From Candidatus Thorarchaeota archaeon (lineage in GTDB: Archaea; Asgardarchaeota; Thorarchaeia; Thorarchaeales; Thorarchaeaceae), in the NCBI GenBank assembly GCA_008080745.1, contig SHMX01000001.1, forward strand, positions 420,001 through 452,000: a stretch of 32,000 nucleotides of DNA, read 5' to 3'. The notes under the pieces were generated by a model that saw only the letters and a list, made by a program, of their open reading frames with translations, was not told where the DNA came from and searched no databases. A program made the position numbers and the translations under genes. Below are positions 12,156 through 18,612 of this stretch, in pieces (position 1 is the stretch's first letter; each line of letters opens with the position of its first letter).

Positions 12156-13712
12156 TTGACACGAGATACAGATCGGGAAACTTGTAAGATATGTAGAGAT
12201 GCGAGAGCTACACATCTCTGTCAAGGTTGTGGCGAACTACTTTGTTTGGAATGTCAAGGAACTAGATCTAGTGTGTTCTATGTCTGTAACGAATGTCATC
12301 ATGTTCTTGGAACCCCCCAACCAGGCGAATCTTTTGAGAAATGTCCAGAGTGCGATTCTGACGATCTTGGTGAAGGAAAACGAGTCGAAAACATATGTCC
12401 TCGCTGTCATTCCACAGAAACAATTGTTCTTGAAGAAAAGAGGAGAACTTTGACAATGAATATGCGTCATGCGATACAGAGTTTATCCTATGGCCATACT
12501 AAACTTCGAGAGTTCCAAAGTAGATTTACAAGTGCAAAAAGACTGCTTGTATCACTAAGGATGGCTAATTTCCTTCATTATCATTGGCTAGAGAGCAAGA
12601 TAGAAGATATGCAAGAAGAAATCCCAGCAGTTAAAACTAGAATTGCTAGTCAAGCAGAGATAGTTGCGAAACAGATCGCGGCAGAAACGAAGGGTCTAAT
12701 GGATTATAATGACTGGGAGCCGTCACAGTTTCCTTTCATCGAAGGAGTAACCAATAGGGTAAATGAGCTTGGAAAACAATACAGAAGAAATGTTGATGAG
12801 TCGCTTCAACGAATATTATTGAAAATAGAAGAATTAGAAAAACAACTAGATGGATTGAATTATTATAGAAATGAATTTAGCGATTTTTATGAATATGCTG
12901 AGCTATCAGTAAATGAATTACCAGTTTGTGCGTTTCCTGATGTAAAACTAACAGGAAGCGACTTCATAAAAGCAGACAAGTCTACTGGTACCCTTTTTAT
13001 CACAAACAAGCGTGTTGTCTTCATAGCTGAAACTGGAATAGTGAGAAAAAAGACCGATATTGTATTTGATTATCCTCTAATCTACCTGAATTCAATAGGA
13101 GAGGATGGAAGGATACGAAAGAGAGTTGTACTAAAATTCAAACAGGGAGAGGTCAAAATAACATGCTGTGAGCAAACTGAGCGGGTGTTACCAGACTATA
13201 TCGAGATTGCTAGAAAATTCGATAAATATATCCAAACCGATCTCCAAAGAGTCAGAAAACTTGAGCAGGGAGACTTGAATATTAGTGAGGTCAGAATGAA
13301 AATTGAGAACCTTGTCTACTCGCTCTTAGCACCAACCAGAGCAATGCGAGATACAAAACAATCAGAACGCCGGTCTTCCGAATACACTAGACCATGGGAT
13401 ACAGGAAGAATTGTCAACCCTTCAGGATATGACAGGCAGCCAAGAAGAAACTTTAGAGACCATCTTGAAGGAACCATTAGTAGGGGCAGTCAGGATGCAA
13501 CACAGTATCGAAGAAACCCCGAAATCAGAGGATTAGAACGGGAACTCCATAATCTAGAGAATGCCATGAGGAATATGGTTCATCTTTTCAGAGATGGAAG
13601 AATGGTCCCAGAAGAGTTCATCCGGAGATACAAGAGTTTGATGAGGGACTCTTTCTTTACCAAGAAGCGAATTAGCGATATTACCAGAGAAACTCAAGAT
13701 TTCCGATGGTGA
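12156..13712 (+). CDS. Putative ESCRT-I-like subunit: Zn fingers (6 CxxC), coiled coil, GRAM/PH-like domain, C-terminal steadiness-box-like hairpin
   Basis: TTG start after GGAGG. CKIC/CQGC/CLEC/CNEC/CPEC/CPRC, then long heptad helices, GTLFITNKRVVFIAE (GRAM/GLUE-like), and ENAMRNMVHLFRDGRMVPEEFIRRYKSLMRDSF resembling the Vps23/Tsg101 core. Abuts the ESCRT-III gene. Confidence 0.65.
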   Translation: MTRDTDRETCKICRDARATHLCQGCGELLCLECQGTRSSVFYVCNECHHVLGTPQPGESFEKCPECDSDDLGEGKRVENICPRCHSTETIVLEEKRRTLTMNMRHAIQSLSYGHTKLREFQSRFTSAKRLLVSLRMANFLHYHWLESKIEDMQEEIPAVKTRIASQAEIVAKQIAAETKGLMDYNDWEPSQFPFIEGVTNRVNELGKQYRRNVDESLQRILLKIEELEKQLDGLNYYRNEFSDFYEYAELSVNELPVCAFPDVKLTGSDFIKADKSTGTLFITNKRVVFIAETGIVRKKTDIVFDYPLIYLNSIGEDGRIRKRVVLKFKQGEVKITCCEQTERVLPDYIEIARKFDKYIQTDLQRVRKLEQGDLNISEVRMKIENLVYSLLAPTRAMRDTKQSERRSSEYTRPWDTGRIVNPSGYDRQPRRNFRDHLEGTISRGSQDATQYRRNPEIRGLERELHNLENAMRNMVHLFRDGRMVPEEFIRRYKSLMRDSFFTKKRISDITRETQDFRW

Positions 13713-14336
13713 TTACATCCCAAGTTCTTTCTCTAGCGATTTAATCTCGTCTTCTAATTCTTCTGTTTCCGAAACTGGGCCTGCTGGAGCCGCTTCAGCA
13801 ACTCCCGCTTCACGATCAATTTCAGCCATTGCTGCTGTGAGGTCATCAGTAGTAACTCGACTTTCACCTGTCGAATCAAATGCTTCTTCAGTGATACTGC
13901 TCTCTATCTCAAATTCTTCCAGTCTTCGAGATATTTCATCTATGTTCTCAACAACCTTCGTAGCGTCAGTAGAGTCACCAAGAAGACCTAATATTTTGGA
14001 TACACGTTCTACAATCTTGGTTGCTTGTGCAGTGGTCTGTGCACGAGTCACATGTGCAAGTATCTTTAGAAGCTGTAATCGAGACCTATCGATAGATAAA
14101 GCATATCTTCTGAAACGAACCATCTCTGTTGCATACATTCGATAGGCATCAGTACGTCCCTCTTTCCGAGCACGGACAGCACGAGCCTTAACATCGCGTT
14201 CTTCTTTTTCCAATTTGTTGCGTTGGCGTTCCAGTTGTTTTGTCATGATACGTAGCTGACTTGTTACTTCTGCAATGTCGGGTTTCTTTCGACCCCATGA
14301 AAATGCCTTTTTTAACGCATCCAAGAATATCACCAT
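13713..14336 (-). CDS. ESCRT-III subunit (Snf7 family, Vps2/24/46-like)
   Basis: Basic N-terminal helical hairpin (QLERQRNKLEKEE..VK..A..ARKEG...YRMYA.E.VR.R), acidic C-terminal half (DDLTAAMAEIDREAG) and MIM1-like tail EELEDEIKSLEKEL. Start is ATG 14336, or TTG 14324 after GGTGAT. Confidence 0.88.
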   Translation of the reverse strand: MVIFLDALKKAFSWGRKKPDIAEVTSQLRIMTKQLERQRNKLEKEERDVKARAVRARKEGRTDAYRMYATEMVRFRRYALSIDRSRLQLLKILAHVTRAQTTAQATKIVERVSKILGLLGDSTDATKVVENIDEISRRLEEFEIESSITEEAFDSTGESRVTTDDLTAAMAEIDREAGVAEAAPAGPVSETEELEDEIKSLEKELGM

Positions 14337-14428
14337 CGGGAAGGTATCTTCCATCCAAAGGTATGAGGCAGTGCGTTTAAACCTTCGCAGAGAGGAGTAT
14401 GATAAAGCAATTACACTCATAACACGGA

Positions 14429-14468: not shown

Positions 14469-15695
14469 ATGTCAGGAAGTGGTGGCGATCGAGTCGACAG
14501 GGGTCTCAAGGCCCTGCTTGATAAAGCGATAGAGCTTGACAGGCGAGGAATGAATAAAGAAGCATGTGAGTATTATCTAAAATCCAGTAAGATTCTACTT
14601 AAATTATCAAATTCAGCATCGCTTCCGTCCATTCGAAAACACTACTTTGATCGAGCTCAAGAGTGCGTCGATAGAGTACGATATCTGACAGGTATTAAAA
14701 AGAAATCAAGAGGGCCAGTAGAAGGATTGAGTACTATCCCCGCCTCCGAATCCAGCTCAACAAGCTCAAGGCCTGCTGAAACGGAAGAACCAGAGAAGGA
14801 AGAGGACACTGATACTCGACGCCTCCAAGAAATGATTGCAGATACAATAATCACCGAACGCCCGGATATCAAGATGACCGAGATAGCAGGATTAGAAGAT
14901 GCAAAACAAGCAATACAAGACGCAATAATTGCCCCAGCCAAGCATCCAGAATTGTTCAAAGGCAAGTCTCGCCAACCTTGGAGAGGTATCCTTTTCTATG
15001 GACCTGCAGGATGTGGGAAAACTCTTATCGCTAAAGCAGTAGCAGCAGAGGTCAATGCAACATTCTTCAACGTTTCAGCAGCAAATATTGTTAGTAAATG
15101 GCTTGGAGAATCAGAGCGATTGATCATGACACTCTTTGATCTTGCAAGAAAGAATCAACCTGCCATTATATTTATGGATGAGTTGGATTCAGTTGGAGTA
15201 GCTAGGTCGGGAGATGATGTAGGTGGAGAACGCCGGTTGAAGACACAATTGCTAACTGAACTTCAAGGTCTTGCTAGCAAACAGGAAGATCGGATTACTG
15301 TTATTGGTGCAACTAATCTGCCTTGGGAAATTGATTTTGCGCTTAGATCCCGTTTTGAGAAACGGATTCATGTACCATTACCAGACAAAGAGGCAAGAAC
15401 CGAGATATTTAGGATACATATGGAAGAGATAGAAATTGGATCTGATGTTGATTTTGAAGAGCTAGCTGATTTGAGTGAGGGTTATAGTGGCAGAGATATC
15501 AGCGTTGTATGTAGAGAGGCAGCTATGGAACCAATAAGAGACCTTCAAAAAACAGGCCGGATGGATGAAGAAGGGGAGATTCTAGCCCTTAGACCAGTAT
15601 CACGGGAAGACTTTCTACAAGCTATTGATAATATCAGACCCGCAACGTCTCCAGAGGATATTAAGAAATACATTGACTGGGCGGAGGGCTCCTAA
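14469..15695 (+). CDS. vps4: Vps4-type AAA+ ATPase with N-terminal MIT domain
   Basis: MIT three-helix region (A.ELD..G..KEA.EYY), Walker A GPAGCGKT, pore loop SKWLGESE, Walker B IIFMDELD, and ATNLPWEID.A..SRFEKRI. Confidence 0.93.
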   Translation: MSGSGGDRVDRGLKALLDKAIELDRRGMNKEACEYYLKSSKILLKLSNSASLPSIRKHYFDRAQECVDRVRYLTGIKKKSRGPVEGLSTIPASESSSTSSRPAETEEPEKEEDTDTRRLQEMIADTIITERPDIKMTEIAGLEDAKQAIQDAIIAPAKHPELFKGKSRQPWRGILFYGPAGCGKTLIAKAVAAEVNATFFNVSAANIVSKWLGESERLIMTLFDLARKNQPAIIFMDELDSVGVARSGDDVGGERRLKTQLLTELQGLASKQEDRITVIGATNLPWEIDFALRSRFEKRIHVPLPDKEARTEIFRIHMEEIEIGSDVDFEELADLSEGYSGRDISVVCREAAMEPIRDLQKTGRMDEEGEILALRPVSREDFLQAIDNIRPATSPEDIKKYIDWAEGS

Positions 15696-15698
15696 ATC

Positions 15699-16421
15699 GT
15701 GAGTACACGAGAACGGTCACGTAAGACGGAAGAAAAGACTAAATCAAAGACGGTAGAGAAAAAATCTGATAGTTCTGAGAAGAGCAAAAGTAAGCAAAGT
15801 GAAAGCTTGAGATCTTCAAGACCCACAGAAATTGAAAAACTAACGTCTATTTCTTCCTCCGAAACTCAACAGGCTATTAGTGAGGAAACTACGGAGGTTG
15901 ATCAAGCTCTTGAAATACTACTCCCAATTTGGGGAGACAGAAATGAGAGTGAGTGGATGTACCACGTCCCAGAAAGAAAAGAGGATAGGGGAATGTGGGC
16001 ACAGGAATGGGCTGACTTTCTGCTTGAATGGACGCAAAATAAAGTCGTTCATGTCATTTCTGTAACGATGTTCATCAAGGAGGCACCATTCAATGATATC
16101 CTGGGTAAGTCAGATGCCTTCAAAATGATTGGAGATGCATTGGTAGATAAGGAAATGGCGGATTGGACCAGTCGAAAGAAACGGCAACTCCGAGTGTATT
16201 GGAGACCTCTAGAGGAATGGGCAGATATTATTTATCAGTGGGCATTAGATACGGGACATACAAGGCTTGATGTCAAGTCAATCATGATTCAAGAGGCGGA
16301 TCAAGATTTTGCATCACTTCCTGAGAAGGACCTTCATATTGTTATCGAGCTCATGGTGGAAAAAGAATTAGCAGAATGGGTAGACAAGAAGAGAGGAGCA
16401 ATCAAAGTAAATATCATCTAG
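15699..16421 (+). CDS. vps25: ESCRT-II subunit Vps25 homolog with a low-complexity N-terminal extension
   Basis: R..W.QEW.DFLLEW, YWRPLEEWADIIYQW and tandem winged-helix pattern (L...G/K.AEW). GTG start 3 nt after the vps4 stop. The first ~65 aa are S/K/E/T-rich. Confidence 0.82.
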   Translation: MSTRERSRKTEEKTKSKTVEKKSDSSEKSKSKQSESLRSSRPTEIEKLTSISSSETQQAISEETTEVDQALEILLPIWGDRNESEWMYHVPERKEDRGMWAQEWADFLLEWTQNKVVHVISVTMFIKEAPFNDILGKSDAFKMIGDALVDKEMADWTSRKKRQLRVYWRPLEEWADIIYQWALDTGHTRLDVKSIMIQEADQDFASLPEKDLHIVIELMVEKELAEWVDKKRGAIKVNII

Positions 16422-16437
16422 GCAACGCTCGCAATTC

Positions 16438-17196
16438 CTATGCAGATGGAATCTGAGTGTTGTCTGATTCTTCTCTAGAACGGAGACCAGGGAACCAGTA
16501 TCTGCCACCTGTAGAAAATCTACGATCTGCTACAGCCATACCAGCATCAACTAAACTGCTTAACACCTGTCTAGCATGATCTTCTGACCACTTCAGACGC
16601 ATCATAATTTCCTCAATTGATGTGAATCCCTTTGAGGCTGCCAGATTGATCACATCTGATTGATCGCGACGTAGCTCGAGGGGACGAAGTTCGACCACCT
16701 TTACTCCACATCTAAGGGTCCGTATTCCAGGGATGAGACCATGTTCTGCAACCATATCCACTGCTTGAATTACATCATTGTAGGAAACAGATTTTAGTTG
16801 GGGAATTTTTCGTACAACCTCAACAATTAATTCAGCAAGCCCCATCAACCCTTTTGCTGAATTAGCAGTAGCAACATCTAGAACTGCTAAACCAATAAAA
16901 TCGTAGTATTCTTCTTTTGTCATATCTTTTGGAAAAGCCTCACCACGATTAGATGTTAAATCTAGCATCCGTAAAGCCTCAGGAAAGTCGTGGATGAATA
17001 TTTCACTTCCGAGAAAAGACTGAACATCAAATCCAGAACGCCTCAATTCTTCAACATAATTATTGACCTCGTATAGTAGTGCCTCTGATTCTCTCTGATA
17101 TGACCGGATGTCGACAACGCCAAGATCGAACATCTTTTTGAGTTGGTCGAGTGTTGCAATTGAGGCGTATAACTCAGATTGAAGTCGGTTTTGCAT
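16438..17196 (-). CDS. Fusion protein: Vps28 N-terminal (ESCRT-I) hairpin plus Vps22/EAP30 (ESCRT-II) winged-helix domains
   Basis: aa 1-80 SELYASIATLDQLKKMFDLGVVD..SY......LL is Vps28N-like. aa ~93-240 YYDFIGLAVLDV..GLM.L.EL, P.EL..DQ..V..LA..KG, LKWSEDHARQVL..LV..GMA, YWFPGL is Vps22-like. Confidence 0.8.
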   Translation of the reverse strand: MQNRLQSELYASIATLDQLKKMFDLGVVDIRSYQRESEALLYEVNNYVEELRRSGFDVQSFLGSEIFIHDFPEALRMLDLTSNRGEAFPKDMTKEEYYDFIGLAVLDVATANSAKGLMGLAELIVEVVRKIPQLKSVSYNDVIQAVDMVAEHGLIPGIRTLRCGVKVVELRPLELRRDQSDVINLAASKGFTSIEEIMMRLKWSEDHARQVLSSLVDAGMAVADRRFSTGGRYWFPGLRSREESDNTQIPSA

Positions 17197-17481
17197 TAGC
17201 CATTATCCGTCCATGGAGAGTATACTGTTCACTCGTCAGATAAGTTGTACATAGAAAATGAGGCTTTAAGACCAAGTATTATATGCTTGTTAGCAATTCG
17301 TGCTAATTGCCATCAGTTGTGACGCTCGCAACCCTTTTCATTATAATAGAACAAACCGTTGATTATTGCATGAATTCCTAGAAAACACTTATAGGTGTGG
17401 AAAAAACTGCATGCTTGTTTCTGGCGGTTTACAGACGTCAGGAGAGAGAATAACACTAGGAATAGTGTTGGAGGATAAGAT

Positions 17482-18612
17482 ATGTATAATCGATACCAAA
17501 TTATGGTATTCTCTATTTGTATAGCTATTGCCGCGCCCGGGTTTGTGGCTGCGTTTACCACACCAATCACAAATCCAGTTGTTGTAACTTTCGACCAAAC
17601 AACAGCAGAAAGAGTAGCGGTAACCACATTTCACCAAGAAATGTCAAATGCCATAACAGTAGAATACGGAAGTCTTCAATATAATCTAATGAAGATGAGA
17701 GCAGTAGGACCCATGGTCTTTGTAGGACATGGTAATGCTGATGGAATTCGGGATCAGAATATGGTTGTGTCTGCCAAGCAGATTCAAACCGAAATCAGTA
17801 CTACCGCTGCAGCAAGAATATACCTACTCGCTTGTGATTCGGAAGAGATTGCAGATTTCGATAAATCTGGTCGAACTCATGGATACAGCTACATGGTAGA
17901 TGCAGAACTAGCTGCTTTTGATGCTGCAATAAGAATCAAATTATTCCTTGGACAAATTGATTCAGCGATTGAAACCTTCAAAACCTTCAGAGAGGTACTG
18001 ACGGCCAAGTTCATTGGAACCAATGAGTACATGCCTCTAGGACTAATCGGAGGAGGTACTATTGGAGGAGGTGGAACAACTAGTCCCGTCTTCAGTACAG
18101 CTGAAAAGCTTAATGCTGTCAAAGTATTTGGTCTTGGTTGTATCTTTGCCCTGATTGGTTTTGGTATATCAGTAGCTGGAGACAAGTTATCTGATGCTAT
18201 AGACAAATGGCTTAGAGTTGATGCTTTAGGTGTGCCTTCTTCTCAACCAAGTAAAGTAGTAAAGATATTCAATTATGTGAAGGACTATGGAATCGGTACC
18301 TTAGATGTAGCAGTTGGTAACATCTATGGGGGCTGGACTGATATGGCAGCCGCATGGCTTGATACATCTGTGAACATCCTAGGAGATTGGCTTGACAGTA
18401 TGAGTGCTGGTGAGTGGGCAGTATTCCTTACATATTGTGCTTTGGATATTGTTGTCACAATTCTCACAGCAGGATCAAAGGCATGGGTACAACTCTGTGT
18501 TGGTATTGGTTTTGCAGGACTTGAAGCTGCTACAATTGCAATATGTGACGCACACGACTCAAACACCTATCCAGCTTCTGGTGTAGGTGACGCAATTTCA
18601 AGTTGGACATAA
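17482..18612 (+). CDS. Secreted protein with a putative clan-CD (caspase/gingipain/CHAT-like) protease domain and a hydrophobic C-terminal region
   Basis: SD GGAGG at 17470. Signal-peptide-like N-terminus, VFVGHG (His83), IYLLACDS (Cys118), Gly-rich linker, then several hydrophobic helices. Confidence 0.55.
   Translation: MYNRYQIMVFSICIAIAAPGFVAAFTTPITNPVVVTFDQTTAERVAVTTFHQEMSNAITVEYGSLQYNLMKMRAVGPMVFVGHGNADGIRDQNMVVSAKQIQTEISTTAAARIYLLACDSEEIADFDKSGRTHGYSYMVDAELAAFDAAIRIKLFLGQIDSAIETFKTFREVLTAKFIGTNEYMPLGLIGGGTIGGGGTTSPVFSTAEKLNAVKVFGLGCIFALIGFGISVAGDKLSDAIDKWLRVDALGVPSSQPSKVVKIFNYVKDYGIGTLDVAVGNIYGGWTDMAAAWLDTSVNILGDWLDSMSAGEWAVFLTYCALDIVVTILTAGSKAWVQLCVGIGFAGLEAATIAICDAHDSNTYPASGVGDAISSWT

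Follow-up and report, generated by a model that had tools for sequence, protein, structure and literature searches.

The window analysed here, a 32,000-nucleotide stretch of contig SHMX01000001.1 from a Candidatus Thorarchaeota genome (3.16 Mb in 19 contigs, 98% complete), carries five adjoining genes that form a Thorarchaeota-type ESCRT cluster (Table 1). The gene under study is a 252-aa ORF with an ATG start on the minus strand (16438-17196), and its closest protein relatives are labelled Thorarchaeota. It is convergent with vps25, and 16 nt lie between the two stop codons. The 518-aa protein of the cluster corresponds to Znr_PH_CC_SB (cog.011556) of Makarova et al. (2024, mBio; PMC10936438). 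The N-terminal extension of Vps25 (window 15699-15990) comprises ~95 residues of low complexity that are rich in Ser, Lys and Glu, and the Pfam match of this protein begins at aa 99. Beside the cluster lies a 376-aa ORF (window 17482-18612, plus strand) whose product starts with a hydrophobic segment, contains a Gly-rich stretch and has hydrophobic helices at its C-terminal end; the sole Pfam match was weak (HAB, E 0.06), and no link to ESCRT was evident.

Table 1. Parts of the 252-aa protein and genes of the ESCRT cluster, in window coordinates.
Feature	Position (strand)	Residues	Basis or remarks
Vps28-type N-terminal headpiece	16957..17196 (-)	1-80	Hairpin of helices 2-24 and 30-53, then three short helices at 58-77
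Linker	16918..16956 (-)	81-93	Little conserved, predicted flexible; pLDDT <50 at aa 81-87, variable alignment columns
Vps22/EAP30 tandem winged-helix core	16477..16917 (-)	94-240	Pfam EAP30, SNF8, Foldseek; pLDDT mostly >90
C-terminal tail	16438..16476 (-)	241-252 plus stop codon	Variable, short, low model confidence
Zn-ribbon/coiled-coil/PH/steadiness-box protein, 518 aa	12156..13712 (+)		Weak Pfam bPH_3, B-box and Vps23_core (aa 464-503)
ESCRT-III (Snf7 family)	13713..14420 (-)		Pfam Snf7, E 9e-8
Vps4	14469..15695 (+)		MIT domain, AAA domain, Vps4_C
Vps25 (ESCRT-II), 240 aa	15699..16421 (+)		Pfam PF05871 ESCRT-II, E 4.6e-13; low-complexity N-terminal extension

When the 252-aa protein was searched against Pfam, EAP30 (PF04157) matched aa 88-224 with an E-value of 8.3e-14 and 52.3 bits, above the gathering threshold of 26.8, and this match was confined to profile positions 82-218 of 219. 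Residues 86-239 aligned with human SNF8/Vps22 (3cuq_A and 2zme_A) with an E-value of 1.5e-14, and the protein matched yeast Vps22 (1u5t_A) with an E-value of 1.5e-4. In the AlphaFold2 model of the whole protein (mean pLDDT 89.5), aa 94-246 form a tandem winged helix and the linker at aa 81-87 is of low confidence. Furthermore, a Foldseek comparison of the whole model returned 2zme_A (7e-10) and 1u5t_A (1e-7), and Vps36 chains ranked next. Taken together, these data demonstrate that aa 94-240 are a Vps22/EAP30 tandem winged helix, in agreement with the preliminary description of this DNA, which had assigned the C-terminal ~150 aa to that fold.

The N-terminal part of the protein has a different affinity. 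Pfam VPS28 (PF03997) matched aa 7-76 at profile positions 2-71 of 188 with an E-value of 0.006 and 16.8 bits, and the scores obtained for the 252-aa protein (16.8-19.4 bits) lie below the gathering score of 24.5; thus, of the two Pfam searches that the preliminary description had suggested for the two halves, the one with EAP30 exceeded its threshold and the one with VPS28 gave a match below it. The VPS28 profile was matched by 24 of 30 orthologous N-termini, with a best E-value of 2.7e-4. In a phmmer (HMMER) search of 1.84 billion representative proteins, three proteins aligned to query aa 4-88 only (E 1.8e-6, 1.2e-5 and 1.3e-5), and by Pfam all three are full-length Vps28 (profile 2-188, E 3e-17 to 2e-11), with source labels of Jordarchaeales and Odinarchaeia. 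Profile comparison with hhalign gave a probability of 99.4 and an E-value of 8e-22 over 80 columns for 30 Thorarchaeota N-termini against 13 Asgard Vps28 N-termini, whereas the Thorarchaeota heads against 15 canonical Asgard and eukaryotic or eukaryote-like Vps22 N-termini gave a probability of 0.3. The heads and the Asgard Vps28 N-domains align over ~80 columns without gaps, and conserved motifs are common to both.

The modelled structure points in the same direction. The head residues have a model pLDDT of 86-95, and when the model of aa 1-88 (pLDDT 86) was compared with 350,542 PDB chains using Foldseek, ranks 1-10 were all Vps28 N-domains: human 6VME chains E, U, V, W, X and Y, yeast 2CAZ chains B and E, and yeast 2F6M chains B and D. 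The TM-scores by query were 0.63-0.77 over 81-86 columns, which include the extra short helices; nine of the ten chains had TM-scores of 0.68-0.77 and rmsd values of 2.4-3.2 Å, and 2f6m_B had 0.63 and 4.0 Å. Vps23 hairpins covered just 52-55 columns of the head model. Foldseek E-values are weak for such a small domain (0.14), and the argument is made from rank and coverage. The helical N-terminal domain of Vps22, which occupies EAP30 profile positions 1-81, is absent from the protein: the EAP30 match starts at position 82, and the heads were not recognised by the Vps22 N-termini. We conclude that aa 1-80 are the Vps28 N-terminal headpiece (steadiness-box) domain, though the Pfam match by itself is sub-threshold, and not the usual Vps22 N-terminal helices. 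The claim that the N-terminal ~80 aa are Vps28-N was therefore borne out by the phmmer, hhalign and Foldseek results, and neither of the outcomes named beforehand as speaking against it, a failure of aa 1-85 to match Vps28-N or an alignment with the Vps22 coiled coil, was seen.

Two readings would do away with the fusion altogether. According to one, this is a normal Vps22, and the likeness of its N-terminal coiled coil to Vps28 is a coincidence or an effect of helical composition; both the sub-threshold Pfam VPS28 match and the weak E-values that helical hairpins yield in Foldseek (0.14) are what such a protein might give. This reading is already refuted, and we give it almost no credence: phmmer reached full-length Vps28 with an E-value of 1.8e-6 in a library of 1.84 billion proteins, hhalign separated Vps28-N (99.4%) from Vps22-N (0.3%), all ten leading Foldseek chains among 350,542 were Vps28-N over 81-86 columns, and the 80-column alignment is gapless with conserved motifs in common. 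The other reading, that the assembly artificially joined two genes, is still less credible, and nothing was found in its favour. The full-length architecture is shared by more than 120 protein clusters, which come from many assemblies and in part from contigs of more than 1 Mb, by 31 genomes of the order and by 16 of the 17 further genomes sampled from the family. In addition, the region 16300-17400 is covered without a difference by Logan contigs from two runs on marine sediment (129 kb; depths 48 and 129), which served for this check in place of raw reads and may derive from the source sample. The misassembly against which the preliminary description had cautioned was thus not seen.

The 252-aa protein has no Vps28 C-terminal four-helix-bundle domain; the VPS28 match stops at position 71 of 188, and what follows in the chain is EAP30. 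No credible Vps28-C match was found elsewhere in the 98%-complete genome with Pfam VPS28, and the absence of this domain, as claimed earlier, is upheld. A VPS28 match in the same genome (a 465-aa ORF on contig C3, E 0.44) and matches in the relatives G069 (414 aa) and G055 (444 aa; E about 1e-3) are long coiled-coil proteins and not Vps28, and a weak EAP30 match on contig C2 is an MCM winged helix. Searches of the genome for ubiquitin and UEV gave no match, which agrees with published statements that Thorarchaeia are without ubiquitin and without UEV-Vps23. Outside the window, contig C1:66910-69255 (L066:411-2756, minus strand) encodes a 781-aa protein with long coiled coils and a C-terminal module that aligns with EAP30 at profile positions 37-214 (E 0.002). 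Because of the extent of this match, the protein includes part of the N-helical region that is missing from the chimera, and it may be a second stalk subunit of ESCRT-II, comparable to Vps36. Relatives have proteins of this kind with 760-880 aa, and others are present among the representative matches (e.g. P0140 and P0143).

Among the sampled genomes, those of the Thorarchaeota-type order and a single metagenome-assembled genome (MAG) labelled Odinarchaeia were the only ones seen to carry the chimera. A Vps22 ORF of 246-280 aa is present in 16 of the 17 further family genomes. In 15 of these, its EAP30 match begins between profile positions 58 and 85; in the sixteenth (genome G075) it begins at 17, yet the N-terminus is of the same Vps28 type. 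A Vps28 over the Pfam cut-off was found in 0 of the 17 other sampled family genomes and in 82 of 121 genomes across the phylum. In the single sampled genome of the sister family in this order (G112), one 265-aa ORF matched both the VPS28 profile at 2-142 (24.6 bits, over the cut-off) and the EAP30 profile at 61-217. In the remaining Asgard families, Vps22 covers the EAP30 profile in full (1/2-218) and Vps28 is a separate protein; these canonical Asgard Vps22 N-termini align with eukaryotic SNF8-like N-termini. In family f9, ORFs of ~790-807 aa (e.g. G104:C44:12782-13054 and G071:C1:154076-154348) match Vps28-C only (profile 87-182, above the Pfam cut-off) and belong to the multidomain Vps28-C proteins that have been reported from some Asgard lineages.

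In the MAG labelled Odinarchaeia (GCA_054383955.1, locus L068), a similar chimera of 299 aa, P0127, occupies exactly the place between UEV-vps23 and vps25; genes for ubiquitin and a RING protein are near it, and the locus has no separate vps28 or vps22. The genes at this locus encode ubiquitin, a RING protein, UEV-Vps23, P0127, an unrelated 266-aa ORF, Vps25, Vps4 and two Snf7 proteins. The Vps4 is unusually long (550 aa), and unlike in Thorarchaeota, the chimera stands here alongside a ubiquitin/UEV system.

The fusion itself has been known for Thorarchaeota since 2024, and its recognition in the present window is a correct rediscovery. Makarova et al. (2024; PMC10936438) stated that Asgard Vps22 (cog.002769) "are fused to an SB", used the label "Vps22#, Asgard specific version" and described the Znr_PH_CC_SB family; their Table S3 lists residues 1-70 of the Thorarchaeota Vps22 KXH75178.1 against PF03997 with an HHpred probability of 99 as "VPS28 protein (N-terminal domain - SB)". 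The window protein, with its head and two winged helices in an ESCRT cluster, belongs to this SB-Vps22 class and is an ortholog of 'Vps22#', with the same architecture, lineage and neighbourhood (Vps25, Vps4, ESCRT-III and Znr_PH_CC_SB). Unlike in that study, where the SB fusion was attributed to Asgard Vps22 generally, the other families sampled here have eukaryote-like N-helices. Lineage restriction, the loss of a free Vps28, an origin based on synteny and recurrence are not stated in that paper. To this, the present analysis adds the restriction to certain lineages, the finding that none of the sampled family genomes has a free Vps28 above the cut-off, an origin proposed from synteny and perhaps a second one, and a candidate partner obtained by modelling. 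Earlier, Hatano et al. (2022, Nat Commun; PMC9192718) had synthesised ThorAB25_09030 (Vps22), _08990 (SB) and _09020 (Vps25) for yeast two-hybrid assays and reported that the Thorarchaeota Vps22 self-interacts. ThorAB25_09030 is an ortholog of the window protein that shares its N-terminal motif and its gene order (08990 SB ... 09020 Vps25, 09030 Vps22); we found no mention of a Vps28-type head in the text of that paper, which treats the protein simply as Vps22.

Compared with its eukaryotic counterparts, the chimera shares with Vps22/SNF8 (3CUQ, 2ZME and 1U5T) the tandem winged-helix core (1.5e-14; Foldseek 7e-10) and may share the partnership with Vps25, but it carries Vps28-N in place of the N-helical domain (EAP30 1-81) that pairs with Vps36. 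With the N-domains of Vps28 (6VME, 2CAZ, 2F6M, 2F66 and 2P22) it shares the hairpin followed by short helices and, in the model described below, the packing on a Vps23-type hairpin; unlike Vps28, it lacks the C-terminal four-helix bundle and is covalently joined to ESCRT-II. The UEV-Vps23-Vps28 fusion of Heimdallarchaeota AB_125 (Hatano et al., 2022) likewise unites in one Asgard chain ESCRT subunits that are separate in eukaryotes. However, that fusion joins two ESCRT-I subunits and keeps Vps28-C, whereas the chimera crosses from ESCRT-I to ESCRT-II and drops Vps28-C.

The gene order of other Asgard families is informative about how the chimera may have arisen. Of 20 loci with Vps28 in other families, 18 have a canonical vps22 3' of vps28 on the same strand, mostly ~15 nt apart; locus L018 holds only the first 35 codons of vps22 before it ends, and L030 ends ahead of vps22. 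An extra Vps28-C-like stretch occurs between vps28 and vps22 in some loci (L018:2096-2368 and L028:2097-2369), in agreement with the separate Vps28-C genes reported by Makarova et al. (2024). The Odin-type genome G001 has the order UEV-vps23, vps28, vps22, followed by convergent vps25 and vps4, which is the layout of the window plus vps23 and vps28. Because vps28 sits directly upstream of a canonical vps22 elsewhere in Asgard archaea, an in-frame deletion between neighbours is suggested, and we infer from synteny that the chimera originated by a deletion of ~0.6 kb between adjacent, co-directed vps28 and vps22 genes. Such a deletion would have removed Vps28-C, the spacer and the Vps22 N-helices and would have left the protein that is observed.

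Phylogenies of the two halves differ in what they tell about the number of such events. In the winged-helix tree, the chimeras of the Thorarchaeota order formed one clade (94/87), and P0127 fell inside another well-supported group (100/98) with canonical Vps22 proteins; for these winged-helix halves, the AU test rejected a single clade of all chimeras (p-AU 0.0066), in a tree that has long branches and with a test applied once the tree was known. The 80-residue head gave a poorly resolved tree with P0127 on a very long branch, and a single chimera clade was not rejected (AU p 0.41). Since the head-domain tree is uninformative, only the winged-helix tree bears on the number of origins. It suggests, though not securely, that the chimera arose twice, through independent fusions in the Thorarchaeota-type order and in the lineage of P0127. 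A wider reading of these data is that the chimera is a derived replacement and not a general feature of Asgard Vps22, that it arose more than once by in-frame deletion between vps28 and vps22 (in the Thorarchaeota-type order and separately in the Odinarchaeia-labelled lineage), and that each event cost the free Vps28 and the Vps22 dimerisation helices and gave one covalent ESCRT-I/II unit, which in Thorarchaeota would operate with a Zn-ribbon/PH adaptor and without ubiquitin. We advance this scenario tentatively and hold it, as a whole, to be a little short of evenly balanced.

The reverse course, in which the chimera is ancestral and separate vps28 and vps22 genes arose by fission with gain of Vps28-C and the Vps22 N-helices, could draw on the fact that the trees are unrooted, so that the direction of fusion or fission is not rooted either. 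It is nevertheless very improbable. Fission needs two domain gains; the canonical Asgard Vps22 N-termini align both with eukaryotic Vps22 N-termini and with EAP30 positions 1-81; separate genes are found in most sampled families and the chimera in one order plus one other MAG; and by their winged-helix halves, the two chimera lineages do not group together (p-AU 0.0066). A second alternative concerns function rather than descent. Because Hatano et al. (2022) reported self-interaction of Thorarchaeota Vps22, the head could instead, or also, serve dimerisation, and it might mainly drive self-association of Vps22 in place of the lost N-helices, without linking to the Zn-ribbon/PH protein. The yeast two-hybrid result and the absence of the canonical N-helical dimerisation domain favour this account, as does the behaviour of steadiness-box hairpins, which homo- and hetero-oligomerise; the Odin Vps23 dimer, for example, binds one Vps28. 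Against it stand a confident model of the head with the hairpin of the 518-aa neighbour, with contacts on conserved residues, and the constant company of the two genes, both described next. We regard self-association as the main role of the head as unlikely, and it is compatible with the docking of the head on the 518-aa protein, the reading that we prefer.

In the order, the 518-aa neighbour and the chimera occur together in 31 of 31 genomes, and the two genes lie about 3-4 kb apart wherever the positions of both are given. Its C-terminal hairpin (aa ~456-518, nt 13521-13709) is the only Vps23_core-like match in the genome. When the fragment P0271:439-518 of this protein was modelled with the head (P0001:1-88) using ESMFold2, an ipSAE of 0.68 was obtained in three runs, and the best of 3 controls reached 0.01; the mark was reached by 58 of 80 solved complexes and by 2 of 110 mismatched pairs. 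At least 93% of the contacts agreed between runs, and the partner pLDDT was at least 78. The modelled contacts fall on the most conserved residues of both partners: in the head, those of the N-terminal motif at aa 6-25, and in the hairpin fragment, R41, G43, F50, Y54, M58 and R59. The complex is a model and not a measurement, and its score may partly stem from the resemblance of the pair to the solved Vps23:Vps28 headpiece; we take it as support for, but not as proof of, an association between the head and the steadiness box of the 518-aa Zn-ribbon/PH protein. A region-limited homolog search with aa 400-518 returned the query alone, and orthologs of the 518-aa protein were taken from the genomes of the order. 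Direct alignment of the head with the hairpin of the 518-aa protein by hhalign was weak (probability 9.8), and the two steadiness boxes are not close paralogs.

In eukaryotes, Vps28-N lies within the ESCRT-I core, and the Vps28 C-terminal domain contacts Vps36 and so bridges ESCRT-I and ESCRT-II; the N-terminal helices of eukaryotic Vps22 pair Vps22 with Vps36. In the chimera, the Vps28-type head would pack on the hairpin of the 518-aa protein in the way that Vps28-N packs on Vps23 in the eukaryotic ESCRT-I headpiece, and the winged helices are predicted to bind Vps25 and thereby to reach ESCRT-III and Vps4. The flexible linker of ~13 residues may stand in for the non-covalent contact between Vps28-C and ESCRT-II, and an adaptor that binds membrane or cargo through its Zn ribbons and PH domain would then be coupled straight to ESCRT-II, without ubiquitin. 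A covalent bridge between ESCRT-I and ESCRT-II, as the preliminary description had proposed, would fit the modelled docking of the head on the steadiness box of the neighbour. Overall, we consider it quite probable that this gene codes for the only Vps22 subunit of ESCRT-II in a Thorarchaeota-type Asgard archaeon and that this subunit is a lineage-specific chimera, in which a Vps28-N head takes the place of the Vps22 N-domain, docks on the 518-aa adaptor and goes back to a vps28-vps22 deletion.

Because the fusion itself has already been published, the value added here is modest, and it lies in the restriction to certain lineages, its coincidence with the lack of a free Vps28 over the Pfam cut-off in the sampled family, the neighbourhood of vps28 and vps22 elsewhere, and perhaps two origins. 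The head and the hairpin of its modelled partner offer a compact and well-defined domain pair for binding or structure work. For the biology of these archaea, the fusion is a natural experiment on the handover from ESCRT-I to ESCRT-II: it implies that a peptide linker can stand in for the contact between Vps28-C and ESCRT-II, and that ESCRT-II can receive its input from a Vps23-type hairpin carried by a Zn-ribbon/PH adaptor in an organism that lacks ubiquitin and UEV proteins.
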